Shown here: in pieces, positions 17,593-43,648 of the stretch | How positions within the stretch are numbered: position 1 is the first letter of the stretch | Layout: every line of letters begins with the position of its first letter | Assembly (NCBI GenBank): GCA_963818475.1 | Contig: CAWFSF010000003.1 | Span: forward strand, 128,001-192,000 | Length of the DNA stretch: 64,000 nt | Origin: Nitrospirota bacterium | GTDB taxonomy: Bacteria; Nitrospirota; UBA9217 | Direction: 5' to 3' | Notes under the pieces: model-generated | Databases searched by the model: none | What the model was told of the DNA's origin: nothing | What the model saw: the letters and a program-made list of their open reading frames with translations, nothing else | Translations under genes and position numbers: made by a program

Positions 17593-17677
17593 CGCGCTAT
17601 TTTAGTTTTCGTGTAAAATCTAAAATAAGCATCGTAGTTATTTTAGCCTGACGAGGTCGTTTTCTTTTGCACCCCTC

Positions 17678-18606
17678 AGTGTCAGGCCTATAATGTTTAT
17701 ATTTCTATTTTTTCATAAGCTGACTGACGTACGTAAAGTGCATCCCCAGGTGATCAGCTATCGCCCGCTGGGTATATCCGTATTTCTCAACAGCCTCCGC
17801 AATCTTCCGGCTGCGCTTTTGCTTGTCTTTCAGTACAGCCAGCGAAAAGATTTTTGCGAGTTCAGGCCTATGCGCATATCGCTGGCTTCTTGGTATTTCC
17901 GGGACATCCTTGTGTTTTCTCAGATGATCGAGAAGCTTATCGGCAAATTCCTCTTCCCCGAGAATGATCTGACCTCTGACTTCAGTCCAGATCGTCTGTT
18001 TTCCAATTCCCCAATGGACAAACTGTTTATATTCTTTCTCAGCCTTGCCCCTCTTTCCACTGAACTGACCGAGTACCCAGTCGGTCGTAAGGCAGGGATG
18101 CGCTCCTTCCCTTCCAACTGTAGCCCGGTAGCTGCTCCACTTCCATGCTTCGGGAGCATCCACCATCTTTGCCCTTACCGGATTGAGGACGACATATCGG
18201 CAAACCTCCAGAAGATGGCTGTCTTTCTGGATAAGGATGGATTTGTATCTTCCCTGAAAGAGATGGCCGGCACGTCCATGAAGCTTATTGAAGAGCTGAG
18301 TATACACGCCGTTCAACTGCCGCATGCCGATTGCAAGGTTTCCGTCCGGCGTCTCGACCAGAAGATGGTAATGGTTGTCCATGAGGCAACAGGCGTGGCA
18401 GATCCAGTTGTAGCGTTTTTTGACATGCTGAAGGGTATTGAGGAAGTTGATGCGGTCCTGGTCGCTTTTAAAAACGGGCTTTCGCTCGTTTCCACGAGAA
18501 GTAATATGGTAGACAGCACCTGCATACTCTATTCGCAAAGGTCGAGCCATTGGCCCAGAGGATATCAGAAGAAAAGATAAAAGTCAAACATTATAGACCT
18601 GACCCT
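17678..18606. mobile_element. RAYT element bounded by imperfect 27-bp inverted flanks (17678..17704 and 18580..18606)
   Basis: AGTGTCAGGCCTATAATGTTTATATTT versus the reverse complement of the right flank, AGGGTCAGGTCTATAATGTTTGACTTT. Confidence 0.75.
17705..18550 (-). CDS. REP-associated tyrosine transposase (IS200/Y1 HUH family) with C-terminal HTH
   Basis: MARPLRIEYAGAVYHITSRGN, HUH motif NHYHL, catalytic RYVVLNPVRA, WSSY, and C-terminal GYTQRAIADHLGMHFTYVS. Confidence 0.92.
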   Translation of the reverse strand: MARPLRIEYAGAVYHITSRGNERKPVFKSDQDRINFLNTLQHVKKRYNWICHACCLMDNHYHLLVETPDGNLAIGMRQLNGVYTQLFNKLHGRAGHLFQGRYKSILIQKDSHLLEVCRYVVLNPVRAKMVDAPEAWKWSSYRATVGREGAHPCLTTDWVLGQFSGKRGKAEKEYKQFVHWGIGKQTIWTEVRGQIILGEEEFADKLLDHLRKHKDVPEIPRSQRYAHRPELAKIFSLAVLKDKQKRSRKIAEAVEKYGYTQRAIADHLGMHFTYVSQLMKK

Positions 18607-18662
18607 ATGAGTTGTTCGGTTTTCTACTTGCGTCTTTTACTTGCTATCTTTCTGGCAGCTCA

Positions 18663-19424
18663 CTACATGACAGTTTTGCGTAGATAACCCAACCAGTCCA
18701 GTGTCCTTGCATATTTCTCCTGGGATAGTGGGTCTGGAGCGGCTAACTTCATGATCCCAAGTTGATGAGCTAGATTTGAGTGTGATAGGGTATACATCCC
18801 CCAGTTACGAACGTTGGGATTCACCGGCACAACAACATAACCATCAAAGTTACCATTGTCATAAGTTGATGTTTTATGAAAAGGTATTTCTCGGTAGGGC
18901 TGTAGATGCATCGCAAAAGAATAATCTTTAGCCCATTCAATGCCACTTTCACTGGCCTTGGGCTTAGTTATTTTGCAGCGATTATCCAGATGCTCAAAAT
19001 GAGCCACAACTGAAGGTGTCAGAATGGTACCTATCCAATTCTGAGAGTGTTGATAATGATTGGCCTCTACAATCGGTCGTCCTGCCAAAATAACACCCTG
19101 TCGCGTATTTGGTGAACGCATAAATGTACCGTACGCGATTGCCCCACGAACAGCGATGCGTTGCTGAGAAAGTTGATATGACAGATGTGAGCAGGTGCGA
19201 ATGATGTTTGCAAAGCTTTCATCAGTTTCATCAATTGTATTAATAACGAGATTATCTGAAAAAAGTACGAATTGCAGTGATGGATTGGCACTGTCAAGTA
19301 TGGAAATGACTGACTCGATGTATTTTTGCACTTGGTCGAGCCCATCATCCTTGCCCACAAGCTCGCGAAAACCCAGAACGTCTATTAACGCAACGAATCC
19401 TGTAATCCTTTTCACATCATCCAC
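18663..19424 (-). CDS. Hypothetical protein with a class III nucleotidyl-cyclase-like fold
   Basis: FVALIDVLGF, FSDNL, VRGAIAYG and GRPIVEA follow the order of cyclase motifs. Confidence 0.55.
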   Translation of the reverse strand: MDDVKRITGFVALIDVLGFRELVGKDDGLDQVQKYIESVISILDSANPSLQFVLFSDNLVINTIDETDESFANIIRTCSHLSYQLSQQRIAVRGAIAYGTFMRSPNTRQGVILAGRPIVEANHYQHSQNWIGTILTPSVVAHFEHLDNRCKITKPKASESGIEWAKDYSFAMHLQPYREIPFHKTSTYDNGNFDGYVVVPVNPNVRNWGMYTLSHSNLAHQLGIMKLAAPDPLSQEKYARTLDWLGYLRKTVM

Positions 19425-19513
19425 GGCAAAGATTCCTCCAGATATTTGTCCGGTAGAGAACCGGAGAATAGTTTAGTCCTCGCCCTACATAAAGACTTGG
19501 GCTGCGGGACGGT

Positions 19514-22444
19514 TCACAGCGTCACCGCCAAATGGTGATCTATCACCGTGACGGACATAATGTCGAAAATACCGCCAGTATCTTTGTATTTTGGATCGGT
19601 CAGATCTTCATATCGTCCGATTTGATTGTAGGCGTCCTGAATTTCACCGTTGACTTGTCCACGATATGCGCCATTTAGAAAAACGACATCCTCCCGGTGT
19701 GCCCTGACGGTACTATGGATGTCCGGGTCTGCTGCCTTCTGCTCGGTAACTTGCTTAATATAAAGGGCCTGTTCTTCGCTGATATCGAACTTAGTTCGAA
19801 TCTCAGCAATCATATCCTGAACAGTAACTTTTATGAGTGGTGGGCCAGATCCTTTCTGGCTTGTGCCAGTTTTTAGTTTGACGGGGCCGCCGCTGCGTAC
19901 CACGCCTTGGTATTCCACGGCCGCCTTGACAACCTCTGTCTGTCTAATCTGCCTCATCAAATCAGATACGCTGCCTTGTTTGATGAGCTGCGGTCCAACG
20001 TATTCCGCGAATGTCGCGAACTCTTTGATCGCTGGCGAATAGGTAAAAAAGCAAGTGAGGAAATGAAAGCTTTTAACGAAACGAGCAAGCAAGTAAACAA
20101 AATCTTTGCGCTCCTCAGTGTCGACAAGCTTCTCCTGGCATCGCGTCCGAAGCGAATTTACTATGAACTGCACCTGGGCGTCAGTGCCCGTAGCGAGCAC
20201 TTGCACAAAATCTGTCGCATCTTTCTGAGTAAACACCCCTGCCGTTAGGATCTCAGCGTATAATTTCGGACAAAGCTCCTGGTCCGGTTCTTCTGGTTCA
20301 AACGGTGTACCTTTGCGGTACTTGGAAAATGCCTTGAGAATGGCCTTTGCATTGTTGGTAAAGTCCACTACTATGACATCTTTTTTCCCCTCATAGCAGC
20401 GGTTCAATCGGGACAATGTCTGAACGGCATTGCGGTCCATAACGGGTTTGTCTAGGAACATACCGGCAAGCAGTGGTTGGTCGAAACCTGTTTGAAACTT
20501 ATTAGCAACGATCATCAGCCGGTAGTCATCGCCCTCAAAGCGCTCCTCGATCAACTCCCCTTCCTTCAATTCATTCACTGCATGTTCATTGATATTTGCG
20601 TTCGTTACAGTGTGAACGAAATCTGAAAATGCATAGAGCACCTTGTAGTCAGCGCCACGCTCTTTAAGCTTTTCTTTAATGATCTGGAAATATCGCAGCC
20701 CAGCCACGCGGGAACTGGTTACGATCATAGCCTTAGCGCGATTATTAATAAGATGCTTCACATCTTTCTCAAAGATACGCAGCATCACTTCAGCCTTGTA
20801 TTGAATCAGCCCTTCGTCATTGAATGCTACATTCTTCAGCGCCTTTGCGACAATGCCTTTAGGATAGAGCTTTTCCTCCTCGTCCGAGTTGGGCACTACC
20901 TGACAATGCAGATTGTAAAGTGTTTTGTAGGAAATGATGCTGGCTGCCACATCTACGATATAACCTTCTTCGATTGCTTCAGCTTCACTGTATGTGTCAA
21001 ATGGTTCGCCGAACAAGCTGACGGTCGCCGGCGCTGGCGTAGCTGTGAATGCAACGAATAACTGATTAAGGTCGTGTTCCCGGATAACCTTGGCTATTTG
21101 TTCTTCCTGGTCTTGTTCAGTAGCTTCTTCATCCGGTTCGTTTGCCTGTCTGAAAGGCAGCCGGATGGCCGCCCCCATTTGGCCTTCCTGCGAACGGTGA
21201 GCTTCATCTATTAAGAAGGCAACTCGCAGCTTTTTCAGTTCAGGATTTCTTTCTATCTCTTCCAGCACCCATGCAAATTTCTGTTGAGTCGTCACAATGA
21301 TCGGCTTTCGCTCCGCGAGGAAGCGCGGCAGGTCGGCGGACTTCCGTGCCAGACCCACAATGTCCTTAAGGTGCGTAAAGTGCTCGACCTCATCTTTTAT
21401 GTTTGTGTCCAGCGACTTGCGATCGGTAAGTATGAATACCTGGTCCACCAGTTTCTCGTTCGTGCGAGGCTTAAAAAGGCTGTGCAGGCGGTCCGCCAGC
21501 CAGCACATAGTGAGCGTTTTGCCACTGCCGGCGGAATGGTTGATGAGATACTTGCGGCCGATGTTGGCCTTCGATGCGAATTGTGCCGAGATGTCTTCTG
21601 CCACCTTTCTCACCGTACGACTCTGGTGGTAACGGGGAAATAGGGTGAAAGCAGCGTGCGCCGGTTTGTCTTCATCGGCCTCTCGTTCCGGCACGCGGAC
21701 CAGAAAGAATGAAAGCGCTTCGAACAACTGCTCCTTGGATAGCACCTCGCCGTAAAGGAATTCCACTGGGTATTCGCTGCCATCCTTAGTGACGGGCTCG
21801 TTCTTCAGGCCCGTATTATGCCAGCGGAAGTTTTGTTCGCGGCGCGGGTCTGTGGCAGCCATCACATCGCTTGTGTCAGCAGCAAGGTAAAGGAACGGGT
21901 GTTGGAAAATATTGCGTGCATGATCGCGTGCAGCAAATTGTGCCACAGCATCATGCACGGTCTGATTCTTCTCGTGTTTCAACTCCAACGCCACGATAGG
22001 CAGACCGTTGAGGAAAACGACGAAATCAATCTCCTGATTGGTTTCGCCGAAGTAGAAATGTGGCCGAAAGGTAATGCGGTTCTCGCCGAATTTGCTGGTG
22101 GCTGTGCTCTCATCGGAGCGGGGCTTTGGATAGAAAAGCCGAAACTCCTGCCCGCGCACTTTTAATCCATGGCGGAGGAGTATCCACAACGGCGTGTGCT
22201 TCAGTTCCTTGCGTAGGGCTTTAAACACCTCGTCTCGCGCGTCTGCTCCGTAGTCATCTGCAAGCTTTTTGAGCGTACCGGACTGCGTGGCTTTGAGGAA
22301 TCCCCAAAGCTGATCTTCTGCAATGTAGTGCTCGGTGTCCGTGATATCAGACTGTTCGAGCAAACCATAACCGTGTTCGCGGATCAGGAAGTCCGCGATA
22401 TGCTTTTGAAAGACCAGTTCAGGTGCTTTCTTTCGATTAGCCAT
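19514..22444 (-). CDS. hsdR: Type I restriction endonuclease subunit R
   Basis: Nuclease motif IDFVVFLNGLPIVALELK; helicase motifs HSAGSGKT, DEAH, FTATP, KFQTGFDQP and VQTLSRLNR. Confidence 0.95.
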   Translation of the reverse strand: MANRKKAPELVFQKHIADFLIREHGYGLLEQSDITDTEHYIAEDQLWGFLKATQSGTLKKLADDYGADARDEVFKALRKELKHTPLWILLRHGLKVRGQEFRLFYPKPRSDESTATSKFGENRITFRPHFYFGETNQEIDFVVFLNGLPIVALELKHEKNQTVHDAVAQFAARDHARNIFQHPFLYLAADTSDVMAATDPRREQNFRWHNTGLKNEPVTKDGSEYPVEFLYGEVLSKEQLFEALSFFLVRVPEREADEDKPAHAAFTLFPRYHQSRTVRKVAEDISAQFASKANIGRKYLINHSAGSGKTLTMCWLADRLHSLFKPRTNEKLVDQVFILTDRKSLDTNIKDEVEHFTHLKDIVGLARKSADLPRFLAERKPIIVTTQQKFAWVLEEIERNPELKKLRVAFLIDEAHRSQEGQMGAAIRLPFRQANEPDEEATEQDQEEQIAKVIREHDLNQLFVAFTATPAPATVSLFGEPFDTYSEAEAIEEGYIVDVAASIISYKTLYNLHCQVVPNSDEEEKLYPKGIVAKALKNVAFNDEGLIQYKAEVMLRIFEKDVKHLINNRAKAMIVTSSRVAGLRYFQIIKEKLKERGADYKVLYAFSDFVHTVTNANINEHAVNELKEGELIEERFEGDDYRLMIVANKFQTGFDQPLLAGMFLDKPVMDRNAVQTLSRLNRCYEGKKDVIVVDFTNNAKAILKAFSKYRKGTPFEPEEPDQELCPKLYAEILTAGVFTQKDATDFVQVLATGTDAQVQFIVNSLRTRCQEKLVDTEERKDFVYLLARFVKSFHFLTCFFTYSPAIKEFATFAEYVGPQLIKQGSVSDLMRQIRQTEVVKAAVEYQGVVRSGGPVKLKTGTSQKGSGPPLIKVTVQDMIAEIRTKFDISEEQALYIKQVTEQKAADPDIHSTVRAHREDVVFLNGAYRGQVNGEIQDAYNQIGRYEDLTDPKYKDTGGIFDIMSVTVIDHHLAVTL

Positions 22445-23132
22445 TCGTTTTTACCTGGTTCAAGTCCGCAGCTGTGACCCGCCTCTGGCCGGCGATGCAT
22501 TCATTTATCAACGCTTTGCGATACGCAAATAGGGTTCCCATTTGCCTATTCAGAACTCCAATTGGTCGGGCGATTTCGTTTGGTGCCTTGTGTAGCGATG
22601 CCACCGAATCCAACACGGTGCATTTACTGTCCAAGTATGTCACTATTAATTTTTGTTCTTGGACCGTTGGAAGCGGCAATACAAGGGACCCAAATTCTTT
22701 GTCACCAACTGCGGGGTAACCAACACCCGTTGCTGATGCCTCAAAATACTGGCGAGCATAATCTGATATAAGGACGTAGTAAGCAAACTTGGGCCAAAGT
22801 CGGTTCTCATCTGTCTGCACGACGTTAAATCCTGTAGAGCAGACTAACCCTGATGGGTCATTCGGAAAGAATGCTACCGCCTGAAGATTGGGGCGAACGG
22901 AGGAAATGATTATGCTGTTCTGAAAAACTAATCGGCGTGCTCGCGATGGTGCGTCCTCAAACCGCAGTTGCTCGATGGCATTTAAATCTACGATGCCGAA
23001 ATAGTCCACGTTGGATATTTCAAGATAAGGAAATTCATAATCGGGAGATGTGCTGGCTGACAAAGAGGCTCGATTAATAGCACAAAGATCCTTCATCCTA
23101 TCATCTTTCCAATCGGAGGGAAAGACACTCAT
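22437..23132 (-). CDS. hsdS: Type I specificity subunit S, half-size (single TRD, 231 aa)
   Basis: Starts FPSDW, has one TRD and the conserved LPLPTVQEQKLIV...YRKALINECIAG. Overlaps hsdM and hsdR. Confidence 0.85.
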   Translation of the reverse strand: MSVFPSDWKDDRMKDLCAINRASLSASTSPDYEFPYLEISNVDYFGIVDLNAIEQLRFEDAPSRARRLVFQNSIIISSVRPNLQAVAFFPNDPSGLVCSTGFNVVQTDENRLWPKFAYYVLISDYARQYFEASATGVGYPAVGDKEFGSLVLPLPTVQEQKLIVTYLDSKCTVLDSVASLHKAPNEIARPIGVLNRQMGTLFAYRKALINECIAGQRRVTAADLNQVKTNG

Positions 23133-25126: not shown

Positions 25127-25158
25127 TATGTTTCTATATATCCTTTCAACTGTTAGTT

Positions 25159-26464: not shown

Positions 26465-26572
26465 AACAGTCTCCTTTTATTACCACAGTAAAACCGGACA
26501 CATCAGCATTATGCCGCTATCGGAGATCGTAATGGTGATGATCGTACGCTGCCGCAGGCTGAAACATGAAGC

Positions 26573-28380
26573 GAGTCTGTAGAAAAAGCCAGTTTGAATA
26601 GCTTGCCTGTTCCCCGTTATCTGGTTCTTTGTGTATCCTGGTGTGGGGACGTTTTTATCGATTCTGCTGATTTATCGGTTTAGGAGAGCTGATTTGTTCT
26701 CGCTACCGCATTTTTCATTCCCTTTCTGCTTCCCTTTACCTCAACTACCCGCGAATCCAAACCCGTATCGATGCACCTTCAATAGATTGTGCACGACGCA
26801 ATAGAGCCGCCACTGAATGCTTACCTTCTTTTTCCCTCGGAGGCTGAAGCGATCCAGGCCGAGGCTGCTCCGGACATTGGCAAAGACGGGTTCGACCGTC
26901 GCCATTCTTCGTCCGTAGATCAGCTTGCCGGCTGACCGAGTCTATCTTCTCCCGCATCTTCTGAGTAAACGTCTTCTCCTTGTTCTCGGTCCTTCCGGTA
27001 AAGTGCGCGAACTGTCGAACTTCAGTCCGGTCGGGTTTCTTCAAGCACTTCTCTCTAAGTTGACAAGGGATGCAATCTCGTCTTCGCTCCTTTGAACCTG
27101 ACAACCTGTAATCCGTGAAACGGTACATTCCCGTGACGGTACATCCGTTTCCCGGCAGGGCAGATGCAGAAGCTTTTGTCAGGGCTGACCGTGAAGTCTC
27201 TCGGCTGAAAAATGATCGGCCGGTCGAATTTTTTGGCCATTTCTTTGTTGAACCTCTCCTTGTGTTTGTCCGCATCCGCAAACCGGGGATCGCGGTGACG
27301 AAACTTGTTGTCGGCGATGTATGCGTCGATGCCGTCCTCAATTACCATCTCCACGTTCTTTTCGGAGTGAAAGCCGCGTCGGTGGTCAGTTTGGTCTTTT
27401 TGAATATGTTCTTTTCCTTGCCGATTGTCTCGAAGTTTTCTCGGGTTCCTTCGACCATGGGTTTTAGTATTGCGGATTCGGAGTCTCCGGTCGCTTCCGC
27501 ATGGACCACTACCTGGTGCTTGCTGTCTACCATCGCCACGCCGTTGTAGCCCTGGACCACACCGTGTGAGGTCTTCATGGTGGCGCTTTCGTTGTCGGTT
27601 ATGTTGCTCTTCCGGGGTTTGCCCTTGCTGCCGGGCTTGTCGTCGTTTTCAGCAAGCCAGGTCTTGATCTTCTTGATCTTCGCCTTGAGCGTTGAAATGT
27701 ACTGTTCTTCCTTCTCGATGACGGCCTTGTCGGTCTCGATGCCATCTCGTTCCTTGTGCTTGGTGATCATCTCCCGGATGGCCTTCTCCATCTTCTCTTT
27801 TTTATGTTCGAGTTCTTCCCTGGTTCCGCTCCATTCCTTCGAGGCGTTCGAGGGGAGCTTGCAGCCGTCTACGGCGAACATCTCTTTGCCGATCAGGCCC
27901 ATCTCGTCGCAGATCAGGAGGACTTCGAGGAAAAGCTTGATCGTCTCCTGGTCGTGCGAGGAGATGAAGTCGGCTATCGTGGTGAAGTGCGGCCGGGTGT
28001 CGGCGGAAAGGGCCATGAAGATTACGTTATCGTTGCAGCAATCGGCAATCTTTCTGCTTGAGGTGATTCCTTTGGAATAGGCGTAGAGGACGATCTTTAA
28101 GAGAATCCGGGGATCGTAGGCCGGAGCGCCGGTCTCATCGTTCTTGTACTGGAGGTCGAAAGCGGAAAGGTCGATGTCGTTGTCGATGAGATAGTGAAGA
28201 GTGTGTTCGAAGGTGCCGTGAAGGATTTGTTTGTCGAAGTTGATCGGAATGAACTTGCCTTGGGAATAATTGTAATCTTTATACTTCGCCATACGCCTCC
28301 CGTAGGTGAGGGGTTTTGATGATGCCTTACAGCGTTTTGATGGCGTCATTATAGCATAAAATGACTTTTCCTACAGGTTC
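26573..28380 (-). mobile_element. IS1182-family insertion sequence (~1.8 kb); transposase ~26745..28292 is frameshifted
   Basis: Inverted ends GAGTCTGTAGAAAAAGCC / GAACCTGTAGGAAAAGTC. Transposase motifs GAPAYDPRILLK, SSRKI, FAVDGCKL..NASK, NITDNES and QGYNG. Confidence 0.88.
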
Positions 28381-28434
28381 AACGCGCGGGTGAGACGCGC
28401 GTCTTTTGCGTCGATTTCGACCCGATGGCTGGCT
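28377..28434 (-). other. Integron attC-like site (58 bp, R'' box with one mismatch)
   Basis: Minus strand reads AGCCAGC-catcg-GGTCGAA...CTCACC-cgcgc-GTTGAAC. It directly follows the stop codon of ORF 28442..29026, whose cassette starts with GTTGGCA at 29044. Confidence 0.7.
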
Positions 28435-28441: not shown

Positions 28442-29026
28442 CTAAAATTTATAATTAATACCGTACTCGATATTATTGAAGGTCGTTCCGTTGAAATTAT
28501 TCTCTGTTACGCGAAAGGTAGATGGAATCGGAATCAATTCAGCATTTTCTGCTTTTTCTCTATAAAAATATAAAATGAGCACAAAAAGACCGGCTGCGGC
28601 ATTCAGGCAATTTTTCAGATTGCCTTTATGATAATCTGTATTTCTGTGATGTTTAACTTTATTGTATGCGGTCCACCAATCGGGCACTCCCGTCGGTTCG
28701 CTCCAATTAGACCACGGTGTGAGCTCAAGACCAAATCTAGGAATCGTAACTTTGAAATTCTGAAAGCTTGGATACGCAGCCCGAATTTCATTTCGATACT
28801 GATTAATATTTGAAGCTGAAGAATTCGGATTTATTTTTGCGCAAAGTTGCTTCGCAACAACATCTGCTTCTGAGGCAGCAGAGAAAAGGACCCTTGATAT
28901 TTCAAGTGAATAACAATTGAAATTGTTTTCGGCGAATTCAATGTATCGTGACAGCACTTCAAGATCCTTCTCTAAAGCGAGAAAGTAATTCCAGTGCGCC
29001 AAAGACGGGCTTGTCAGAATCACCAC
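28442..29026 (-). CDS. Hypothetical AT-rich gene-cassette protein
   Basis: 194-aa ORF (HWNYFLALEKDL...WWTAYNKVKHHR) with GGAGG RBS, bounded by GTT and an attC. Confidence 0.75.
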   Translation of the reverse strand: MVILTSPSLAHWNYFLALEKDLEVLSRYIEFAENNFNCYSLEISRVLFSAASEADVVAKQLCAKINPNSSASNINQYRNEIRAAYPSFQNFKVTIPRFGLELTPWSNWSEPTGVPDWWTAYNKVKHHRNTDYHKGNLKNCLNAAAGLFVLILYFYREKAENAELIPIPSTFRVTENNFNGTTFNNIEYGINYKF

Positions 29027-29057: not shown

Positions 29058-29078
29058 AGTGTCAGGTCTTTTATTTTG
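29058..29078. repeat. Orphan copy of the RAYT flank motif
   Basis: AGTGTCAGGTCTTTTATTTTG resembles the flanks at 17678 and 18606. Confidence 0.6.
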
Positions 29079-29245
29079 GTGTTTCAACTTTTTCCGCCAA
29101 CACAAGCCTTTATTCCCTGGCCCATATCCCAACTTCTGTCCGATCTGCACCCCTGATTGCAGCAGGTTCTCATCGTGGATCGTTGATATCGTGGCCGACC
29201 CGCCCGCGACAATTTGCTGCATGAGTGTAGCTGATTGAGTACTCG

Positions 29246-29272
29246 CTGTCACCTGTCGAAAATGACAGGTGT
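29246..29272. repeat. 27-bp palindromic motif, copy 2
   Basis: CTGTCACCTGTCGAAAATGACAGGTGT, matching 4672..4698. Confidence 0.7.
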
Positions 29273-29481
29273 CCAAGCCATGATCAAATCTCCTTCAGTC
29301 TCTTATGGATGATATCCAGCTCGCGCCGCGGAATGGTCTGCTCCGTGAAAGCCTGTGGATTTTCCTTGAACAAAGAAAAGCCGGTCAAAGATGATTTTAC
29401 TCATTTTAACCGGCTCGGACTGTTCTTATAACGATAGTAAACGACCGCGCACCTGTCAAGTCTTTGCTTAACACTTTTATA

Positions 29482-29667
29482 TTATAGTCCTATCGCTTTC
29501 TTTAAATCCTTGTGACTTGTCCATTTTTTGTTCTTCATTTTCACCTGCAACGCGGAATAATAGTCCTTTTTATCTTGCTCGATTTCCTTGAGCCGCAGAT
29601 ATTCCTTATAATCGAGGACAACGGCAACCGGCTTGTCGTTTTCTTTCACGATCTGAGTCTTAATCAT
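29482..29667 (-). CDS. Orphan antitoxin-like protein (Phd/YefM-like)
   Basis: 61 aa, KPVAVVLDYKEY...SHKDLKKAIGL; no toxin follows it. Confidence 0.6.
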   Translation of the reverse strand: MIKTQIVKENDKPVAVVLDYKEYLRLKEIEQDKKDYYSALQVKMKNKKWTSHKDLKKAIGL

Positions 29668-29756
29668 GGTATGCCTTCTGCCTGTGCTTTACTTCGAAAG
29701 CTGTTTGACCGCTCTTTCCGAATATTTTATTTCCATAGGAAATCAGCATCTTGAGG

Positions 29757-29975
29757 TTAATGCTTCTTCTCAAACAGAGTTATCTCTTTATAAAGATCGG
29801 CAACGCGTTTACCCTTTACGGCACCCTTCCTGATTTTTGCGTAATCTCCGTATCCGGTTTCAGACTGCATGATAAATCGCGTTGCATTGACCAGTCCGAG
29901 ATTCTTTACCAATGCCTCCCAGCCTGCATCTCTCAACGCATAGCCACTTAGGTTTTTCTGATGTGTTTTAAGCAT
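29757..29975 (-). CDS. Small protein coupled to the PIN gene (probable antitoxin)
   Basis: GWEALVKNLGLVNATRFI...GDY; overlaps the stop codon of the PIN gene. Confidence 0.65.
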   Translation of the reverse strand: MLKTHQKNLSGYALRDAGWEALVKNLGLVNATRFIMQSETGYGDYAKIRKGAVKGKRVADLYKEITLFEKKH

Positions 29976-30766: not shown

Positions 30767-31118
30767 TGGTGGAGGCGGCGGGAATTGAACCCGCGTCCGA
30801 AAACCTTTAGCCAGAAGCTCGTTACATGCTTGTCCCCTCATTTAAAGCTCTCGCCTCATCCAGCGCCTCAGGGAAAGCTTTGGATTCGGCCAGCCCGGTT
30901 TTTCTTATCTTCCCGCCCCGGACGAAGTCGGGAAGACCAGCCTGGTTTATAACGTCTCTGCGGCTGTTCAGGCGCCGGCCGCGAAACGCGCTACCTATTT
31001 AGGCTGCGAGTGCCAGTTCGTTATTGGCAGTTGATCTTTACCATGTGTTTAACGAGCCCCATGGTACCTCGGCATGCAACTCCTGACCTCCGTGTCCCCG
31101 TCGAAGCCTGTCGCCCCC
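30767..31118 (-). ncRNA. ssrA: tmRNA; tag peptide ANNELALAA
   Basis: 5' GGGGGCGACAGGCTTCGAC, 3' GGGTTCAATTCCCGCCGCCTCCACCA, and an internal tag ORF ending LAA-stop. Confidence 0.95.
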
Positions 31119-37582: not shown

Positions 37583-38491
37583 TCACGGCGGGCACTTGGC
37601 GCAGACCGAGGTGAAGAGCGCTGTGCTGAGGTAGCGGTCGCCGCGGTCGGGCAGGACCACCACGATGGTGCCGCGGTCGAGCCGGCTCGCCATGGTGAGG
37701 GCGCCGTACACGGCAGCGCCGCTGCTCATGCCCGCGAAGATGCCTTCCTCCAGCGCAAGGCGCCGGGTGGTCGTGAACGCGTTGTCGTCATTCACGCTGA
37801 CGATCTCGTCGGGGAAGGCGGGGTCGTAGATCTTCGGAACAATGGACTCCTGCATGTTCTTGAGCCCCTGCACCTTGTGGCCCAGAAGCGGCTCGACGCC
37901 CACCACCCGGATGCCGCTCCGAAACTCCTTCAGCCGCTTGCCCACGCCCATGAGCGTGCCGGTCGTGCCCATGCCGGCAACGAAGACGTCGATGGCGCCG
38001 TTCGTCTGGTCGATGATCTCGCGCCCCGTGGTCTCGTAGTGCGCCCTGATGTTGGCGGGATTGTCGAACTGGTTCGGCATGAAGTAGCGGCCCGGCCGCT
38101 CCTCCACCAAGGCCCGGGCGCGCTTGATCGCGCCGTCGGTGGCCTCGCACCCCGGGCTCAGGATCAGCTCGGCGCCGAAGGCCTCGAGGATCTTCCGCCG
38201 CTCCTGGCTGACGCACTCGGGCATGACCAGGACCACCTTGTATCCCAGGGCCGCGCCGACCATGGCAAGACCGATGCCGGTGTTGCCCGACGTGGCCTCC
38301 AGGATGGTGTCGCCCTTTTTGATATGCCCCGCTTGCTCGGCATCCCGGATCATTGCCAGCGCGATGCGGTCCTTGACCGAACCGCCGGGATTATTGCCTT
38401 CCAGCTTGGCAAAGACCGTTACCGCTTTATTCGTGTTCAGCTTTTCCAGTTTCACGAGCGGGGTGTTGCCGATGCAGTCAAGAACTCCCAT
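37583..38491 (-). CDS. Cysteine synthase (CysK/CysM family, PLP-dependent)
   Basis: KLEGNNPGGSVKDR, ATSGNTG, GTTGT and PDRGDRYLS. Confidence 0.93.
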   Translation of the reverse strand: MGVLDCIGNTPLVKLEKLNTNKAVTVFAKLEGNNPGGSVKDRIALAMIRDAEQAGHIKKGDTILEATSGNTGIGLAMVGAALGYKVVLVMPECVSQERRKILEAFGAELILSPGCEATDGAIKRARALVEERPGRYFMPNQFDNPANIRAHYETTGREIIDQTNGAIDVFVAGMGTTGTLMGVGKRLKEFRSGIRVVGVEPLLGHKVQGLKNMQESIVPKIYDPAFPDEIVSVNDDNAFTTTRRLALEEGIFAGMSSGAAVYGALTMASRLDRGTIVVVLPDRGDRYLSTALFTSVCAKCPP

Positions 38492-38687
38492 AGCCTTCCT
38501 TTGTGGTCCTGCGAGATGCCGATGGCGGCGTGCTCCGGCGGGACAGTACGCGGAATGTGCGACCTGAACGATCGTAGGGAAATATACCAGTTTTGGAGGG
38601 AGGTGAAAAGCAATTTCTTGTATCGCAGGTTCAGCCCTGCTTTTAAACCTAAAAAAACATTGGAACACGGATAAACCTGAAAAAAGC

Positions 38688-38828
38688 CTTTGGACACGGA
38701 AGGAGCGGATTAACTCCGGATAAAAGCGGATAAATCGATAATCACTGCATTTACCTAATGGGTGAACTACATATCAGGGAAAGATCCGCTGTTATCCGAC
38801 CCTTATCCGATTTGATCCGTGTCAAAAG
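38688..38828. repeat. Palindromic intergenic element, family C, copy 2
   Basis: Aligns with 32637..32780 (GCGGATTAAC..GATAAAAGCGGATAAA...AGATCCGC.GTTATCCGA). Confidence 0.75.
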
Positions 38829-38949
38829 CCGTTTTTAGGATTAATTCTGAAAGCCTACCCACCATTTTGGTGATGTGACTTTAGTTCCTAAACTACCGAT
38901 TTTTCCTTGTGATCTCTGCGTTCTCTGGCGGCTAACAACTCTTTTTAGG

Positions 38950-39432
38950 TTAACAGGTATTCGTGTTTTTTTCCCGCACTCGCGGCCTGCTTTTTTCTTT
39001 GACCGCGATCTTTTCCCATGGCGCAACCTCGCCCGGCACGACATGGAACAGCGGGTGGCACTCCGGTCCTGCAAGGTTCCTGAGGCCCCGGTACTTCTCC
39101 GGGTCCCGAGTCCGCAATTTTGACAGAAGATGGGTGATCTCGCAGGCCAACTGTCCCTGCGTGACCGGCAGAGGCTTCCGGAGCCGGCCGCTGCCGATCT
39201 TCGTCCGGTCAAACGAGAATCCCCGCGACAGCGCCTCATCATGAACTGCACGGAGATAGGATGCGATGGCTGACTGCGGAGAGCGGACAGCCCGGAACCG
39301 TTCCAGCTGCGGATGATGGCGGTAGCCCCGGATCCCGCCCTGCAGCACCTTCTGCGCAAGAAGCGCTTCGCGCCAGAGCGCCACAAGACCGCGGGAATCG
39401 AGATAGCGGGGATGGAGGGACCAGAGCCTCAT
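38950..39432 (-). CDS. Pyrimidine dimer DNA glycosylase / endonuclease V-like protein
   Basis: MRLWSLHPRYLD..GLVALWREALLAQKVL..GYRHHPQLERF. Confidence 0.85.
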   Translation of the reverse strand: MRLWSLHPRYLDSRGLVALWREALLAQKVLQGGIRGYRHHPQLERFRAVRSPQSAIASYLRAVHDEALSRGFSFDRTKIGSGRLRKPLPVTQGQLACEITHLLSKLRTRDPEKYRGLRNLAGPECHPLFHVVPGEVAPWEKIAVKEKSRPRVREKNTNTC

Positions 39433-39570
39433 GGATGGGTTCCTGGATGACAACGACAGACAACGCTGAAAAGAACTTTGGCCGCAGATAACATCTGATA
39501 AACGCGATTAAGATAAGTAACGAAGTCTTTTGATACTCAAAAAAGATTCATCTTTGTTGTTCGGTTCTTT

Positions 39571-41955
39571 TCACCTTTTCGGTTTTTTTATCTGCGACAA
39601 TCTGCGGCCAACAGTCTTTTCCGGTTCGTCAGCTGTCCAGCTCTGCGCGCACTTTCCGCAGAAGCTCTTCCAGCCGACCGGCTTGACCATGACCGGCGTC
39701 CCCGGTTCGACCAGGCCCCTCGCCACCATGACGTCGGCTGGATAGCCGCTCAGGAACAGGGCCCTGACCTCGGGGCGAAAGATCCTGATCTTGTCATAGG
39801 CTTCGCGGCCGGTCTTCTTCGGCATGACGACGTCCAGGAGCAGCAGTTTCACCCGGTCCTGGTGTTCCATGAACCGGTTCACCGCCTCCTCGCCGTCGCT
39901 TGCCTCGATAACGCTGTAGCCGTACTGAGAAAGAATGGCGGTCATGACCTGCCGGACGACTTCGTCATCTTCCGCCACCAGCACGGTCTCGGTGCCGCCG
40001 ATGATCGCGGCGCCCGGCGCGGGAATTCCCGCGTCCGCTGCCCGCGCAAGGGGCAGATAGACCTTGAAGGTGGTTCCCCTGCCGGGCGCGCCGATGACGC
40101 TGATCGCGCCGTTGTGCTGCTTGATGATGCCGTAGGCGATCGACAAGCCGAGGCCGCTCCCCGACCCCCGCTCCCTGGTCGTGAAGAAGGGCTCGAAGAT
40201 GCGCGCACGGGTCGCGTCATCCATCCCCTTGCCGGTGTCGGTCAGCGTGACGACGGCATAGGAGGCTTTCTCCAGGCCGTGCTCTGCGGCAAACGCTGCA
40301 TCAACGTCCTCCACGTCGGTCTCGATAAAGAGATAGCCCCCGCCCGCCATGGCCTCCCGCGCGTTCCTCGCTATGTTTATGAGCACCTGCTCGATCTGGA
40401 CCGCATCGGCCAGGACCGTCGGGTCTTTGTCCGTCAGCAGCATCTTCAGTTCGATGTCCTCGCCGATCAGCCGCTTGAGAAAATCCCCGACCCGGTTCAC
40501 GATCTCGTTCAGGTTCGCCGGCACGGGGTAAAGCAGCTGCTTGCGGCCGTAGGCCAGCAGGCCCTGCGTCAGCGTGGCTGCCCGGTTCGCCGCGGTCATC
40601 ATCTGCGCGACATAGGTCCGCAGCGGCTCGTTGTCGGCAAGCTTCGCCATCAGCAGGCTTCCATAGCCGGTGATGGCCGTCAGGATATTGTTAAAATCGT
40701 GGGCAATGCCTCCGGCCAGCGCGCCGAGGGACTCCATCTTCTGCGATTGGCGCAGCTGTTCTTCGAGCTTCGCGCGCTCCGAGAGGTCGATGCCGGTGGG
40801 GATCACATACTCCACCTCGTTCGACCCGTTCAGCAGCGCCGTGTTTGACCAGGCGATCAGCTTGCGCTTCCCGTCCTTCGTGATCCAGCAGTTCTCGTAC
40901 CTGCTCGGGAACATGCCGGCGGTCAGGTTCGCAAAGACGTTCTTGATCCCGGGGACCTGCTCGGGCGGTATCAGGAAATCCCAGACGTGCCTGCCGAGCA
41001 CTTCCGCTGCCGTATAGCCGCTCACCTCTTCGCAGGCATGGTTGAACCGGACGATGGTCCCGGTCCGGTCGAGGACCAGGACCATGGCGCCGACGATGTC
41101 CAGGACCTTGGCGATGAAGTCACGCTCTTTTTTGAGCTCCTCCTCGGCTGCGCGGCGCTGCGTCACATCGCGCGTGACCGCCAGCAGCGCGATGATCTTG
41201 TTCTTTTCATCGCGAAGCGGCACGGCGTGGGTTTCGAGCCTCAGCTTTCCTCCTCGTAAACCGACCATCTCGAACTCGAGCCTGCCGGTCTTTCCCTGGA
41301 ACACCTCATGGAGCAGCGCGGTAAACGGCTCGCGATGTCCGGCTGCAATGAGCGGCCCGAGAGCATGCCCCCGGACCTGCTCCAGTGAATCGGCCTCGAT
41401 CATGTCGAGCCCGGCCCGGTTCATCATCAGCAGCGAGCCGTCCTCGGCGACGAGCTTCACGCATTCCGGTTCCGTATCGATGATGGTCTGCAAAAAGGTG
41501 CGGCTGTTGCGCAGCTCCCGCTCCGCCTGCTCCCGGGCCGTGATGTCCTTGACCATGGAGACGTAGCCTTGCACCGCGCCCGAGGCGTCGCGCAGCACGG
41601 ACGTGTGCCAGTCGCAGACCAGGGCAGCGCCGTCCTTGCTGACGCATTTCAGCACCGCGGAGCCGGAATCGCCGTTCGGGAGGAGCGCTGTCTGCAGCGG
41701 TTCCGGGGCGGCGTCCTCGGACAGGGACGGCATCAGGACCGACGCGTGCTTTCCCTCTATCTCGTCAGCGGACCAGCCGAAGATGCGCTCGGCCGTCCTG
41801 TTCCATTCGAGCACGAGCAGGTCCCGGTCCCACACAATGTACCCGAGCGGCATGTTCCGGATCGTGAGCGCCAGCTGCGCCTCGGCATCGATCAGTCGGC
41901 CTCGCTTTTCGATGCTCGTCATAGTGCCCTGTTTTTCATTCGGCGTCATAAGCAA
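39571..41955 (-). CDS. Hybrid histidine kinase (3 PAS-HisKA-HATPase-REC); extreme C-terminus probably frameshifted
   Basis: [22 protein letters not shown] and DVVMP. The expected LEELLRKVR ending lies in another frame. Confidence 0.92.
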
Positions 41956-41977
41956 AGGTCCTGTGCGGTTTGTTATT

Positions 41978-42006
41978 GTAGGGGCGGGTTTAAAACCCGC
42001 CCCTAC
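41978..42006. repeat. GTAG-family REP palindrome
   Basis: GTAGGGGCGGGTTTAAAACCCGCCCCTAC. Confidence 0.8.
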
Positions 42007-42087
42007 GAGGGCAAGGCCATACTGAAAATATACCAGAAAAAACGCTATTTGGCGCAGGGTGTTGCCTTCTTGACGGGGTGGGAAAGC

Positions 42088-42861
42088 TCAGAGGGAGAAC
42101 AGGTCGGAGACAGCGTAGCGGTCGGCAGTATAGAGCCTGATGTGCCCGGCAACAACTTCGCGGTGGGTCTTGAGTGCCACGTCGGGCCGGTTGTTCTTGT
42201 CGGAAAGATGGGACAAACAGGCCCACTTGAGACGGCCTGCTTCGCCGGCGCGGCGCAGGACCTCGGCAGCCTCGTGGTTCGAAATGTGGCCCTTGGGACC
42301 CTTGATCCGCTGTTTGAGAAAAGCGGGATAGGGCCCGTTAGCAAGCATGTCGGGATCGTAGTTGCTTTCGAGGAACACCGCGTCGAGGGAGGAAACGAGG
42401 TGAATGAGGTCTTTGAACACGTGGCCCAGGTCGGTCATGACGCCCAGCCGTTTTGCGCCCGCCTCGATCACAAAGACCGAGCCGTCCACGGCGTCGTGCG
42501 GCGTCGAGATGGTGTGGACCTGGACCTCGCCGAACTTGAGCCGGTCGCCCGACCGGAAGGAACGGACATCCTTCAGCTTGCCGAGCGTGCTGCTGCGCGA
42601 CGCTGCCGCGGCGAGCGTTGCCGGCGTGACGTAGATCGGCAGGCCGAACTTGCGCTGGAACACGCCCGCATGGCCGATATGGTCGCCGTGGTCGTGCGAG
42701 ATGATGACCGCATCCACCTTCCGGATGTCGCGGCCGTGCTTTGCCAGCCGCTCGGCGGCCTGAACGCCGGTGATGCCCGCGTCGAGCAGAAGCCTGACGC
42801 CGCAGGTCTCGACGTAGATGCAGTTGCCGCTGCTGCCCGACTGGAGTGAGATGGCGATCAT
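42088..42861 (-). CDS. MBL-fold metallo-hydrolase (WalJ/YycJ-like)
   Basis: SGSSGNC, SHDHGDH, PHDA, TDLG, ESNYD, GHISN and HLS. Confidence 0.9.
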   Translation of the reverse strand: MIAISLQSGSSGNCIYVETCGVRLLLDAGITGVQAAERLAKHGRDIRKVDAVIISHDHGDHIGHAGVFQRKFGLPIYVTPATLAAAASRSSTLGKLKDVRSFRSGDRLKFGEVQVHTISTPHDAVDGSVFVIEAGAKRLGVMTDLGHVFKDLIHLVSSLDAVFLESNYDPDMLANGPYPAFLKQRIKGPKGHISNHEAAEVLRRAGEAGRLKWACLSHLSDKNNRPDVALKTHREVVAGHIRLYTADRYAVSDLFSL

Positions 42862-43065
42862 GGTCGGCACTGTAACAGGGCATCGGAAGATTGTCAACGG
42901 GGAATGCGGGGGATCAGCCGGAAAAGAGCATTTGGACGCGGATAAAGACAGATAAACATTTTGAGACTAAACAGGTAACGTCTCTCTTCGGGCGGGAGGC
43001 AGTGCAGATAGATCATCGTCGTCCTGATGTCCGCATGGCTTAGGAGCGTCTGGATCGTGCGGAGG

Positions 43066-43185
43066 ATGAAACACGGATATACCCTGAAAGAGATTGCCGA
43101 TCATATAGGAATACACTATACTACCGTCAGTAAAGTAGTGAAGGGTTTTGGAGAACCACAATCAAATTTACGAATGATCGAATAG
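43066..43185 (+). pseudogene. C-terminal HTH remnant of a RAYT transposase
   Basis: Translates as MKHGYTLKEIADHIGIHYTTVSKVVKG..., matching KYGYTQRAIADHLGMHFTYVSQLMKK at the end of the RAYT at 17705. Too short for the ORF track. Confidence 0.75.
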
Positions 43186-43208
43186 ACTTTTTAAGCGAAA
43201 CACCCTCG

Positions 43209-43589
43209 ATGACCAATCACGAAGAACAAACAATAAAAGCATTCATCCTAAAAGAGAAAAGCGAACGTTATCTCTCGTTTTTGAGCAATAAAAAGCGAAG
43301 AAAGGAAGTTCTAGACCGACTTAATCATTGTAAGGATTTTGATGAACGCTTTGTTCAATGGTTGCCGAGCAATGCAGATGTAGTCAAGATTCTGTTGCAA
43401 GCCGGATCACCGGCAGAAGTATATGTGATTTCGGATAGCAAGCTAGACGGCAAGGTTATGCCTCTTCCCGATGCAATCCATGAAACTTCAATGAATGGAT
43501 CGGGCACTATAGTATCGTGTATACCGGGGAAATTAGCCTATTACTACGATGAGGTCGGCGAACGCCGTGGGCTATTGAAGAGAAGCTAA
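43209..43589 (+). CDS. Hypothetical gene-cassette protein
   Basis: AT-rich 126-aa ORF whose stop codon is followed by an attC after one base. Confidence 0.75.
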   Translation: MTNHEEQTIKAFILKEKSERYLSFLSNKKRRKEVLDRLNHCKDFDERFVQWLPSNADVVKILLQAGSPAEVYVISDSKLDGKVMPLPDAIHETSMNGSGTIVSCIPGKLAYYYDEVGERRGLLKRS

Positions 43590-43590
43590 A

Positions 43591-43648
43591 GCCTAACACT
43601 CGCGTCGAGAGGGTCGCGAAAACCGCGCCTCTCACGCGCTCGTTATGC
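43591..43648 (+). other. Integron attC site (58 bp)
   Basis: R'' GCCTAAC, 5-nt spacer, L'' CGTCGAG with an extra base, central stem, L' CTCACG, R' GTTATGC. Confidence 0.85.

Follow-up and report, generated by a model that had tools for sequence, protein, structure and literature searches.

The 26-kb span studied here, part of the 64-kb stretch of DNA that was analysed (the window), probably comprises three unrelated loci, in which integron debris (SALINs) lies next to insertion sequences (ISs) that accumulated in cassette arrays, and not the single system combining an HUH transposase with attC sites that the initial annotation had proposed. Locus (a) is an intact, multi-copy, IS-like RAYT found at the distal end of an island linked to the tmRNA gene. 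Locus (b) is a single degenerate cassette, ORF194 with attC2, one side of which carries a solo RAYT right end and the other an IS1182-family element that inserted into the GTT of R'. Locus (c) is a second cassette, ORF126 with attC1, following what would be a deletion junction that brought the last 26 codons of an intI against the final 40 of a RAYT. The comparisons below establish the identity of these parts, the decay of intI, the statistical enrichment of RAYT near attC sites, and the variability of the junctions between them.

Features of the three loci

A search of the window at the Rfam gathering thresholds, together with a permissive search of positions 43450-43750, returned no attC family. 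Since Rfam has no such family, we built a lineage-specific covariance model, R1, from 20 attC-like sites located elsewhere in the same genome (G000), with both sites of the window excluded. The R1 alignment contains 17 consensus pairs, 9 of which show compensatory changes, and GTT is present in 20/20 seed sites and AAC in 19/20. With filters off, R1 gives exactly two real matches in the 64-kb window, about 15 kb apart. The features are the following.

17133..17582 (−): C-terminal fragment of a Fic-family gene, immediately past the right end of the RAYT (NF046030 positions 203-355 of 361)
17646..17687 (no strand): hairpin formed by the right-end tip and an adjacent partial inverted copy, resembling a REP doublet (fold, uniqueness)
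17677..17698 (−): right terminal inverted repeat of the RAYT, CAGTGTCAGGCCTATAATGTTT on the + strand (inverted copy of the left end)
17705..18550 (−): intact RAYT-like Y1 (HUH) transposase, 281 aa, with C-terminal HTH (Pfam Y1_Tnp, E 7.4e-13)
18586..18609 (−): left terminal inverted repeat of the RAYT, CATAGGGTCAGGTCTATAATGTTT in gene sense (inverted flank comparison)
26572..28380 (−): IS1182-family IS, with an in-frame stop in the transposase (NF033551, 153 bits; Pfam DUF772)
28377..28434 (−): attC2, degenerate, R' interrupted by the IS (R1 45.4 bits, E 4.5e-11)
28442..29026 (−): cassette ORF194, 194 aa, no family (ORF list; no Pfam or NCBIfam match)
29058..29083 (−): isolated right end belonging to a second RAYT sub-family (element sense AACACCAAAATAAAAGACCTGACACT; 26/26 match)
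30767..31118 (−): tmRNA gene (Rfam RF00023, 189.6 bits)
42987..43064 (−): C-terminal remnant of an IntI-type tyrosine recombinase, 26 aa, LRTIQTLLSHADIRTTMIYLHC (TIGR02249 positions 279-304, 23.8 bits)
43066..43185 (+): RAYT C-terminal HTH remnant (Pfam HTH families; paralog and DNA matches)
43209..43589 (+): cassette ORF126, 126 aa, no family (no Pfam or NCBIfam match)
43591..43648 (+): attC1, canonical (R1 58 bits, E 5.8e-15; site outside the model)
43655..44557 (+): CxxCxxCC-domain gene after attC1 (Pfam PF03692)

Both attC sites of the initial annotation are thus real, with scores of 58 and 45.4 bits, although only attC1 is canonical. Its boxes, GCCTAAC...GTTATGC, pair at 6/7 positions, and folding of its bottom strand yields -19.8 kcal/mol (z -4.5). 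The degenerate attC2 has kept its GTT, but its R'' reads AGCCAGC, so that the paired core sites R''/R' (RYYYAAC / GTTRRRY) are found in attC1 and not in attC2 taken alone, and its bottom strand does not fold better than shuffled sequences do (z -0.63). The imperfect palindrome of attC sites is seen in the compensatory changes of the R1 pairs and in the scores of the two left-out sites. Both sites occur 3' of a co-oriented ORF, fitting the placement of attC, and each is a single attC with its own ORF, the other attC being 15 kb away and no intact intI being present, which fits a SALIN, where neither a further attC nor an intI is expected within roughly 4 kb.

At locus (a), the intact RAYT has a RAYT-type Y1 HUH domain according to both Pfam and NCBIfam NF047646 (REP_Tyr_transpos, 88.9 bits for a cut-off of 80), and the HYH motif is present in its translation. 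The neighboring Fic fragment scores 38.8 bits against NF046030, for a cut-off of 550. The hairpin at 17646-17687, which had been described as a mimic of the R''/R' boxes, does exist (-7.6/-8.7 kcal/mol, z -3.6/-3.9, with 0 expected by shuffling). Nevertheless, it gives no R1 match at E<=10 with filters off, and it carries GAC/GTC where the seed sites of R1 have AAC/GTT. This hairpin is the right inverted repeat of the RAYT together with a partial inverted copy, and not an attC.

At locus (b), the junction sequences place the IS1182-family element, a candidate for a new attC-specific IS, exactly after the GTT of attC2, and a second copy of the element is 96% identical over 1835 bp. The orphan RAYT flank motif noticed earlier is confirmed and extends to a 26-nt exact copy of a right end: it matches, at 26/26 positions, the 3' end of the element G003:C8:280319-281155, directly after the RAYT stop codon, and the full RAYT in G005:C145 has this 26-mer after its stop codon too. 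No RAYT coding remnant was found by tblastn upstream of this solo end (only noise, E 1.7-7.7), no R1 match was found in the window upstream of the GTTGGCA said to open the ORF194 cassette (filters off), and no intI pseudogene was found beside attC2. The flank motif has only about 12 credible copies in the genome, and its core 10-mer occurs at chance frequency (11 observed vs 10.3 expected). One of the 12 copies is adjacent to an attC, which is compatible with chance (by simple arithmetic, a probability of about 0.16). By its Pfam content, the region from 17 to 30.7 kb, downstream of the tmRNA gene, is island-like, comprising TA genes, the cassette, the IS, type I R-M genes, and the RAYT.

At locus (c), the statement that the window has no intI holds for intact genes only, since an IntI-type C-terminal remnant is present at 42987-43064 on the minus strand. 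This remnant is 79% identical over 24 aa to a bona fide IntI of G009, compared to 57-67% over 21 aa for three Xer-like/IS91-associated recombinases of G000, two others being weaker still. The RAYT remnant ahead of the ORF126 cassette and attC1, already proposed in the initial annotation, is corroborated by a paralog at C6:80561-80650, whose C-terminus is 80% identical to it over 30 aa, and by 82-91% DNA identity to the 3' ends of RAYTs in relatives. The two remnants abut, the N-terminal sides of both being cut at about 43065. ORF126 has no DNA match among 12 relatives. The CxxCxxCC-domain gene that follows attC1 is also preceded by the 3' half of an attC in G002 and G004, and by a full RAYT in G003.

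Integrases and RAYT elements in the genome and its relatives

The attC family is widespread in G000, with at least 48 sites at E<0.01, distributed over 17 singletons and 12 clusters; the search scored 150 of about 2400 first-look candidates per genome, so some attCs were missed and all attC counts are lower bounds. The largest cluster in G000 (5 attC) is divergent from a 130-aa, internally deleted intI. No match to TIGR02249 exceeds the 265-bit cut-off in this genome, where no complete integron was thus recognized. The best match, C3:51408-52214, was rejected as an IntI, being a 285-aa recombinase encoded beside a protein that by eye resembles an IS91-family transposase. In sister genera, intI genes above the same cut-off (two in G010, two in G011, and one in G012) are divergent from the same attC family; 5/6 such intI loci show this arrangement, the sixth lying where a contig begins. 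An intI of G010 is truncated by a RAYT after HTFRHSFA, about 10 codons from the start of the IntI remnant of the window. The lack of an integrase pointed out in the initial annotation is explained by decay, given the remnant in the window, the deleted intI, and the intact intI of relatives.

The RAYT family behaves as a multi-copy element. G000 contains 20 RAYT matches, including many fragments and three paralogs of the intact RAYT (62-72% identity, specifically 72, 71 and 62%), and near-identical sets occur in G010 and in G022, the latter with 4 copies at 97.6-99.4% and 2 at 99%, all with unrelated flanks. The ends consist of 22-30-bp terminal inverted repeats with stuttered outer copies, an architecture shared by 17 full copies from 6 genomes, and the flanks of six copies have no target sequence in common. 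The members of IS200/IS605 have no terminal inverted repeats, carry sub-terminal hairpins, and insert 3' of a fixed tetra- or pentanucleotide; the inverted repeats and the lack of a common target in the six flanks set the present RAYT apart from them. Bertels and Rainey reportedly found RAYTs to be single copy in each genome, vertically kept, and flanked by abundant inverted REPs. Here, inverted flank copies are present at the RAYT and the motif has about 12 copies genome-wide. The copies and fragments in G000, as well as the sets in G010 and G022, do not fit a single-copy gene. The likeness to RAYT/TnpA-REP (PMC8266576; NF047646) lies in the Y1 HUH fold, in a score above the equivalog cut-off, in the inverted short-motif flanks, and in the doublet hairpin at one flank of the window RAYT. 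The differences are its multi-copy, fragmentary, IS-like nature and the absence from its flanks of the classical GTAG palindrome of the genome.

Proximity of RAYT loci to attC sites

RAYT loci are found near attC sites more often than uniform placement predicts. In G000, 4/18 RAYT matches lie within 2 kb of an attC vs 0.6 expected (permutation p 0.003), or 3/17 when the fragment of the window is left out (p 0.024). Over 8 genomes, this is the case for 20/94 loci within 2 kb vs at most 3.9 expected (Poisson p 7e-9), and for 14/94 within 1 kb vs at most 2.3 expected, kin genomes and clustered attCs not being independent in these statistics. In the 11 attC-rich genomes, 12/65 loci of clade A (at least 50% identity; at most 2.6 expected) and 14/52 of clade B (at most 1.9 expected) are within 2 kb, with G010:C1:555355-556095 and G002:C87 counted in both clades, and the two clades do not differ (Fisher p 0.37). 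Around 34 RAYT loci of three contiguous genomes, attC density peaks at 0.5-1 kb, 19 times above background, and is down to background by 10 kb.

In most cases attC precedes the RAYT (18 upstream vs 8 downstream), the reverse of the geometry proposed earlier, in which the RAYT was at the head of the cassette loci. The distance from an attC to the tip of the RAYT varies between about 7 nt and 2.9 kb, in both directions, several ends being very close to an attC, as in G005:C112 (7 nt) and G002:C26 (36 nt), and one RAYT is inserted inside a cassette between two attCs. In the 8 cases where an attC follows a RAYT, no GTTRRRY occurs at a fixed place after the RAYT end. Spacing and junction sequences differ from case to case, and no single position in attC is used, as it would be by an attC-targeting IS. 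A hairpin just after the RAYT end in G003:C8, initially considered as a divergent attC, is actually the right-end scar of an IS1182-type element plus a GTT, and was therefore dropped as a case of RAYT abutting attC.

Among 26 RAYT loci of other species, none lies within 6 kb of an R1 match, even though 3/5 genomes checked behind these loci carry at least 15-26 attCs. With filters off, 9/10 further full-length RAYT copies have no attC within about 1 kb, and none of the 8 clade A copies in G022, G024, and G025 is near an attC.

RAYT and attC are on the same strand in 25/26 cases. In G000, 12/14 RAYT matches more than 2 kb from any attC also share the strand of the nearest attC, and strand agreement was rejected as evidence of coupling, since distant pairs agree too; this points to an effect of replication direction.

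Other mobile DNA gives similar results. Among repeats of at least 400 bp, 13/93 are within 2 kb of an attC vs 3.8 expected. In five genomes, rve-type transposase domains are within 2 kb of an attC in 3/35 cases and within 3 kb in 7/35, compared to 17/78 within 2 kb for RAYT in the same genomes (Fisher p 0.11), and in G010 alone the values within 2 kb are 6/16 for RAYT and 1/19 for rve domains (Fisher p 0.03); the rve distances were measured from an internal domain, making the comparison a rough one. The enrichment near attC is not specific to RAYT, although the excess of RAYT over the controls is somewhat stronger at short range. Of the earlier interpretation, only this weakest form is supported: RAYT co-occurs with cassette arrays more often than under uniform placement.

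Origin of the association and relation to known systems

We propose that the cassettes of the window are debris of chromosomal integrons in a lineage with decayed intI. Pieces of RAYT would be found beside cassettes because this bacterial family can dispense with the DNA of its cassette arrays, where several IS families may accumulate and then rearrange the arrays, delete and scatter cassettes, and destroy intI. The order of these events is inferred, as is the notion that tolerance of insertions (a selection sink), and not targeting, lies behind the enrichment.

A real mechanistic preference of RAYT, which transposes through single-stranded DNA, for cassette arrays, whose hairpins might expose single strands or stall forks without offering a fixed site, seems rather improbable to us. 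The short-range excess in 11 genomes and in both clades, the values for G010, and the near-identical copies independently inserted by different arrays in G010 and G022 argue for it. So does an anecdotal case, a Halorhodospira CALIN whose last attC is immediately followed by an IS200/IS605 element, reported with the remark that ssDNA-dependent elements cluster (PMC7923331). Against it, the controls reach similar fractions, the six flanks have no conserved target, and the copies noted above, both the further full-length RAYTs and those of clade A in three genomes, are mostly or entirely away from attC, as are the 26 loci of other species, for which 3/5 genomes checked hold attCs. A broader version, to which we give a similarly low probability, would make the arrays of this Nitrospirota family preferred landing pads for elements that depend on folded or single-stranded DNA, with RAYT-type ISs landing in or beside the arrays and IS1182-family ISs at the GTT of attC itself. 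These insertions and the resulting deletions would destroy intI and scatter cassettes, IS traffic, especially that of RAYT, would be a main route from integrons to CALINs and SALINs, and RAYT ends may occasionally carry a neighboring cassette.

The mobilization of adjacent cassettes by RAYT, through one-ended or read-through transposition that would spread cassette-plus-RAYT units without IntI, is an idea also raised in PMC7923331, and the order RAYT end, one or two ORFs, attC occurs in 8 cases and at both window loci. We regard it as very unlikely: the repeats in G022 share only the element of about 1.05-1.08 kb, with unrelated cassettes adjoining, ORF126 has no counterpart in the relatives searched, and no duplicated unit of cassette and RAYT was seen. 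Just as unlikely is a pure coincidence with no underlying tendency, which fits the adjacency of motif and attC (1/12) but not the enrichment across genomes (20/94) and in G000. We give hardly any credence to the hybrid of the initial annotation, in which the RAYT flank or its hairpin would be an attI-like or HUH-processed site seeding arrays without IntI. Both cassettes of the window do follow a RAYT 3' end with which they share a strand, and the hairpin arms differ by one base each from the R boxes of attC1. Nevertheless, the differing base falls inside the otherwise invariant AAC/GTT and the hairpin fails the attC model, no attC occurs within 9.8 kb of the intact RAYT, only one of the 12 motif copies is near an attC, the junction between right end and cassette is not fixed, attC sites are mostly upstream, and IntI remnants together with the intact IntI of relatives account for the arrival of cassettes. 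With variable spacing and no fixed GTTRRRY, neither a hybrid system nor a stand-in for attI finds a basis, and comparison of the sequences makes the hybrid reading unlikely.

The IS1111-attC group and the group IIC-attC introns are attC-targeting elements that recur in cassette arrays at a fixed insertion position. The present elements are likewise repeatedly found in such arrays, with the difference that RAYT has no fixed position in attC; the IS1182-family element of the window does sit at one. The Halorhodospira CALIN is a close precedent for a Y1 HUH transposase element at the edge of an integrase-less array, and its authors speculate (PMC7923331) on a link through ssDNA and on integrase-free mobilization. 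As described there, that case is one IS605-type element with tnpA and tnpB and no inverted repeats, whereas ours involves a RAYT-type, tnpA-only element with long inverted repeats, in many cases from 11 genomes and with controls. The isolated ORF and attC with no functional intI nearby resemble the SALINs and CALINs of two other sources (PMC4889954; 10.1101/2022.09.11.507474), as does the occurrence of IS elements and an intI pseudogene at some sites. According to these sources, 95% of CALINs have no recognizable intI pseudogene nearby (both sources), loss of intI or IS-driven rearrangement are possible origins of CALINs and ISs are present in 23% of complete integrons (PMC4889954), and SALINs are common and IntI is able to insert cassettes outside att sites (10.1101/2022.09.11.507474). 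The window differs from the CALINs described there in its 26-aa IntI remnant fused head-to-head to a RAYT remnant.

If the hybrid were true, it would link two machineries acting on hairpin DNA and allow cassettes to spread without an integrase; the evidence does not support it. What our analysis offers integron biology instead is a well-documented example of how integrons decay in an uncultured lineage, two genomes having an intI that a RAYT has cut. It also shows that a transposase classified as RAYT by its profile can behave like any multi-copy IS whose inverted repeats are long, and quantifies how several IS families tend to pile up within cassette arrays.

attC sites and the decay of the integrase

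The features discussed below are as follows, in window positions unless a contig (C plus number) is named; G000 is the window's genome, in which the window spans C3:128001-192000, and the other G numbers are relatives.

17133-17582 (-): Fic-family fragment, model positions 203-355 of 361 only
17677-17698: right repeat of the window RAYT
18586-18609: left repeat of the window RAYT
26572-28380 (-): IS1182-family IS with inverted repeats GAACCTGTAGGAAAAG / GAGTCTGTAGAAAAAG
30767-31118 (-): tmRNA gene (Rfam search)
41978-42006: GTAG-tagged perfect palindrome GTAGGGGCGGGTTTAAAACCCGCCCCTAC, 34 blastn-short HSPs in G000, both strands counted
42987-43064 (-): IntI-type remnant LRTIQTLLSHADIRTTMIYLHC (model search and translation)
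G000 C6:1772156-1772548 (L003 1495-1887) (-): internally deleted intI, 130 aa, divergent from a five-site attC cluster

A BLAST and nhmmer sweep of G000 (4.66 Mb, 7 contigs) with the 43.6-kb candidate returned 26 look-alikes with the frame RYYYAAC...GTTRRRY, of which 20, both window sites excluded, were aligned for the covariance model R1. RNAalifold finds 17 pairs in these 20 sites, with compensatory changes in 9, and the AAC/GTT pairs are conserved in 19-20 of them; the family is absent from Rfam. With filters off, R1 matches the window at attC1 (43591-43648(+), 58 bits) and attC2 (28377-28434(-), 45.4 bits), the only further matches being the reverse strand of attC1 and an 8.8-bit stub. Both sites proposed in the initial annotation are thus real, as judged by a model built without them. 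The bottom strand of attC1 has a textbook-like fold (-19.8 kcal/mol, z -4.5). attC2 is worn, with AGCCAGC as R'', an IS abutting the GTT and a fold not better than shuffles (z -0.63). Genome-wide, G000 carries at least 48 R1 sites at E<0.01 (150 of 2416 first-look candidates scored), arranged as 17 singletons and 12 clusters. R1 is not promiscuous, since six relatives (about 15 Mb in total) gave no match at E<=0.001.

The window had been described as lacking intI. No G000 reading frame passes the integron-integrase model, but an IntI-type remnant is present at 42987-43064(-). Over 24 aa it is 79% identical to the G009 IntI; it shares 78% identity with the IntI of G012 and, over 33 aa, 61% with the IntI of G011. 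Identity to the Xer-like and IS91-associated recombinases of G000 is 57-67% over 21 aa. Beside the largest G000 attC cluster (C6:1773754-1780987, five sites, + strand), the 130-aa ORF consists of an IntI-like N-terminus joined to the model's final 78 positions. Above the cut-off, intI is found in four sister-genus genomes (G009, G010, G011, G012) and in 0/6 genomes of the window's own genus. R1 places a divergent attC within 1.5-3 kb of the gene at 5/6 of these intI loci. From the intI decay and the sister-genus loci, we therefore assign the attC family to a resident integron lineage whose integrase was lost in this genus. One sister-genus locus (G010:C1:545600-558600, L032/L035) is a canonical integron whose intI is cut by a RAYT at model position 270 of 315, with a second RAYT copy 135 bp past the array's last attC. 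This cut, after HTFRHSFA, and the start of the window's IntI remnant are about 10 codons apart.

The RAYT element and the window loci

The intact window RAYT (17705-18550(-), 281 aa) passes NCBIfam REP_Tyr_transpos (88.9 bits, cut-off 80) and Pfam Y1_Tnp, and its close relatives are Nitrospirae/Nitrospirota MAG proteins by source naming. Of the 20 RAYT matches in G000, many are fragments, and there are paralogs at 72, 71 and 62% identity. The element behaves like an IS. All 17 full copies from six genomes share one build, with a left end ...TAGGGTCA(A/G)GTCT..., a right end that is its inverted copy, an inverted repeat of 22-30 bp and, outside both ends, stuttered partial copies of the terminal ~10 nt. 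In L035-L056 and L098-L104 both RAYT ends carry 2-4 of these stuttered copies, e.g. CTAAAGGTTCT repeated, and G010:C15 has RAYT elements nested within one another. The hairpin at 17646-17687, earlier read as a mimic of attC R''/R' boxes, is instead the right-repeat tip with an adjacent partial inverted copy. The orphan motif (29058-29083(-)) is an exact 26-mer from the right end of another RAYT sub-family, and full RAYTs in G003 and G005 carry the same 26-mer directly behind their stop codon. About 12 credible RAYT ends exist in G000, four of them beside RAYT genes or fragments, and only the window copy lies within 5 kb of attC; the core 10-mer is about as frequent as chance predicts (11 observed vs 10.3 expected). 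The GTAG palindrome GTAGGGGCGGGTTTAAAACCCGCCCCTAC is a classical REP family, present in relatives too; at the flanks of the window RAYT it was not seen.

The 26-kb span does not hold together as a single locus: it comprises a tmRNA-linked, island-like part, a housekeeping stretch and separate cassette loci. The island-like part (~17-30.7 kb), downstream of the tmRNA gene, carries toxin-antitoxin genes, a cassette, an IS, genes for DUF4156 and DUF4268 proteins, a type I restriction-modification set and an unknown 253-aa gene, as well as the RAYT and the Fic fragment. The housekeeping genes (31-42.9 kb) encode DivIVA, a proline-synthesis reductase, a radical SAM protein, a PLP enzyme, a PAS histidine kinase and an MBL hydrolase. 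The Fic fragment begins directly past the RAYT right end, and fic may have been truncated by the RAYT or a linked deletion. A 555-bp repeat over the Phd-like antitoxin region (29207-29760) is 94.6% identical to C2:832987-833541, and a RAYT-end motif also lies 1.5 kb from that copy.

Locus 1 is a deletion junction, where the IntI remnant (-) meets a RAYT remnant (+) at ~43065, both without their N-terminal part, followed by ORF126, attC1 and a CxxCxxCC gene. The RAYT C-terminal remnant reported ahead of ORF126 and attC1 (43066-43185) is confirmed: across 30 aa it shares 80% identity with the C6 paralog's C-terminus. An attC 3' half also precedes the orthologous CxxCxxCC gene in G002 and G004; the G003 ortholog borders on a full RAYT, 6 nt further in, and in that genome the MBL gene left of locus 1 is on a different contig. 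The CxxCxxCC gene (43655-44557) is 94-99% identical among same-genus genomes (G003, G002, G004), the neighbouring MBL gene 85-92%, and its context differs between these genomes. The differing contexts suggest that it moved recently as a cassette-like unit without its own attC.

Locus 2 lies on the minus strand and consists, in order, of a solo RAYT right end, 12 nt, GTTGGCA, ORF194, attC2 and the IS1182-family element. The motif is indeed an exact RAYT end and the cassette is closed by attC2, but R1, with filters off, detects no attC upstream of GTTGGCA. The IS1182-family element sits exactly after the attC R' GTT in 6/6 junctions seen, the others being G000 C6:1781045 and C6:2038831, G005:C22, G005:C105 and G002:C87. 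One copy has GTT repeated at its opposite end, and right-end scars CTACAGACTCGTT occur in another attC and after a G003 RAYT. From these junctions it looks like a DDE IS targeting the attC core, resembling IS1111-attC in this apparent preference; a title-level literature search found no published account of such targeting. No attC occurs within 9.8 kb of the intact RAYT (locus 3).

Association of RAYT elements with attC

The RAYT-attC association exceeds chance against uniform placement. In G000, 4/18 RAYT matches lie within 2 kb of attC (0.6 expected, p 0.003), or 3/17 without the window fragment (p 0.024). Across eight family genomes, 20/94 loci are within 2 kb (<=3.9 expected) and 14/94 within 1 kb (<=2.3 expected). 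With three genomes added, which were reached via other loci, the 2-kb counts are 12/65 for clade A (>=50% identity) and 14/52 for clade B (roughly 335 aa, 30-49% identity), two loci being counted in both. Around 34 RAYT loci in three contiguous genomes, attC density is 6-19x background to 5 kb and reaches background by 10 kb. The arrangement differs from what the initial annotation proposed: attC lies downstream of the RAYT in 8 cases but upstream in 18.

Spacing and junction sequences vary between cases, and near-identical G022 copies have only the 1.05-1.08-kb element in common, one of them lying inside a cassette between two attCs. These features, with attC mostly upstream, argue against a hybrid RAYT/attC system; the observations behind that proposal were largely right, its reading unsupported. 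No attC lies within ~1 kb of 9/10 further full copies. An R1 match within 6 kb was found at 0/26 loci from other species, and 12 Nitrospirota loci, with filters off, gave only a 17.5-bit partial match; 3/5 of the other-species genomes examined carry 15-26 attCs among candidates scored, and clade A copies in these three genomes are near attC in 0/8 cases. Strand agreement (25/26 pairs) was rejected as a sign of coupling because 12/14 G000 RAYT matches far from any attC also share the nearest attC's strand.

Other mobile DNA is likewise enriched near attC: 13/93 G000 repeats >=400 bp lie within 2 kb (3.8 expected), as do 3/35 rve domains from five genomes (7/35 within 3 kb), compared to 17/78 RAYT loci in the same five (Fisher p 0.11). 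That RAYT elements, which transpose as ssDNA, truly prefer hairpin-rich arrays is an unlikely explanation to us, even if G010 alone favours RAYT (6/16 vs 1/19 rve domains, p 0.03) and similar speculation accompanies a published case of an IS605-type element ending a Halorhodospira CALIN (PMC7923331). A title-level literature search found no published link between RAYT and attC.

A likely history of the cassettes

Most likely, IntI would have laid down the cassettes in arrays or at secondary sites, which is known chemistry (PMC4889954; Loot et al., 10.1101/2022.09.11.507474). The arrays would then have retained insertions of several IS families because they were dispensable, and recombination and deletion at these IS would have removed intI and split the arrays into today's singletons and small clusters. 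The parts, the integrase decay and the statistics are direct observations; we infer the order of events and the arrays' role as a sink. The window adds a new case of known kinds, namely SALIN cassettes, RAYT remnants that are IS-like and a decayed integron.
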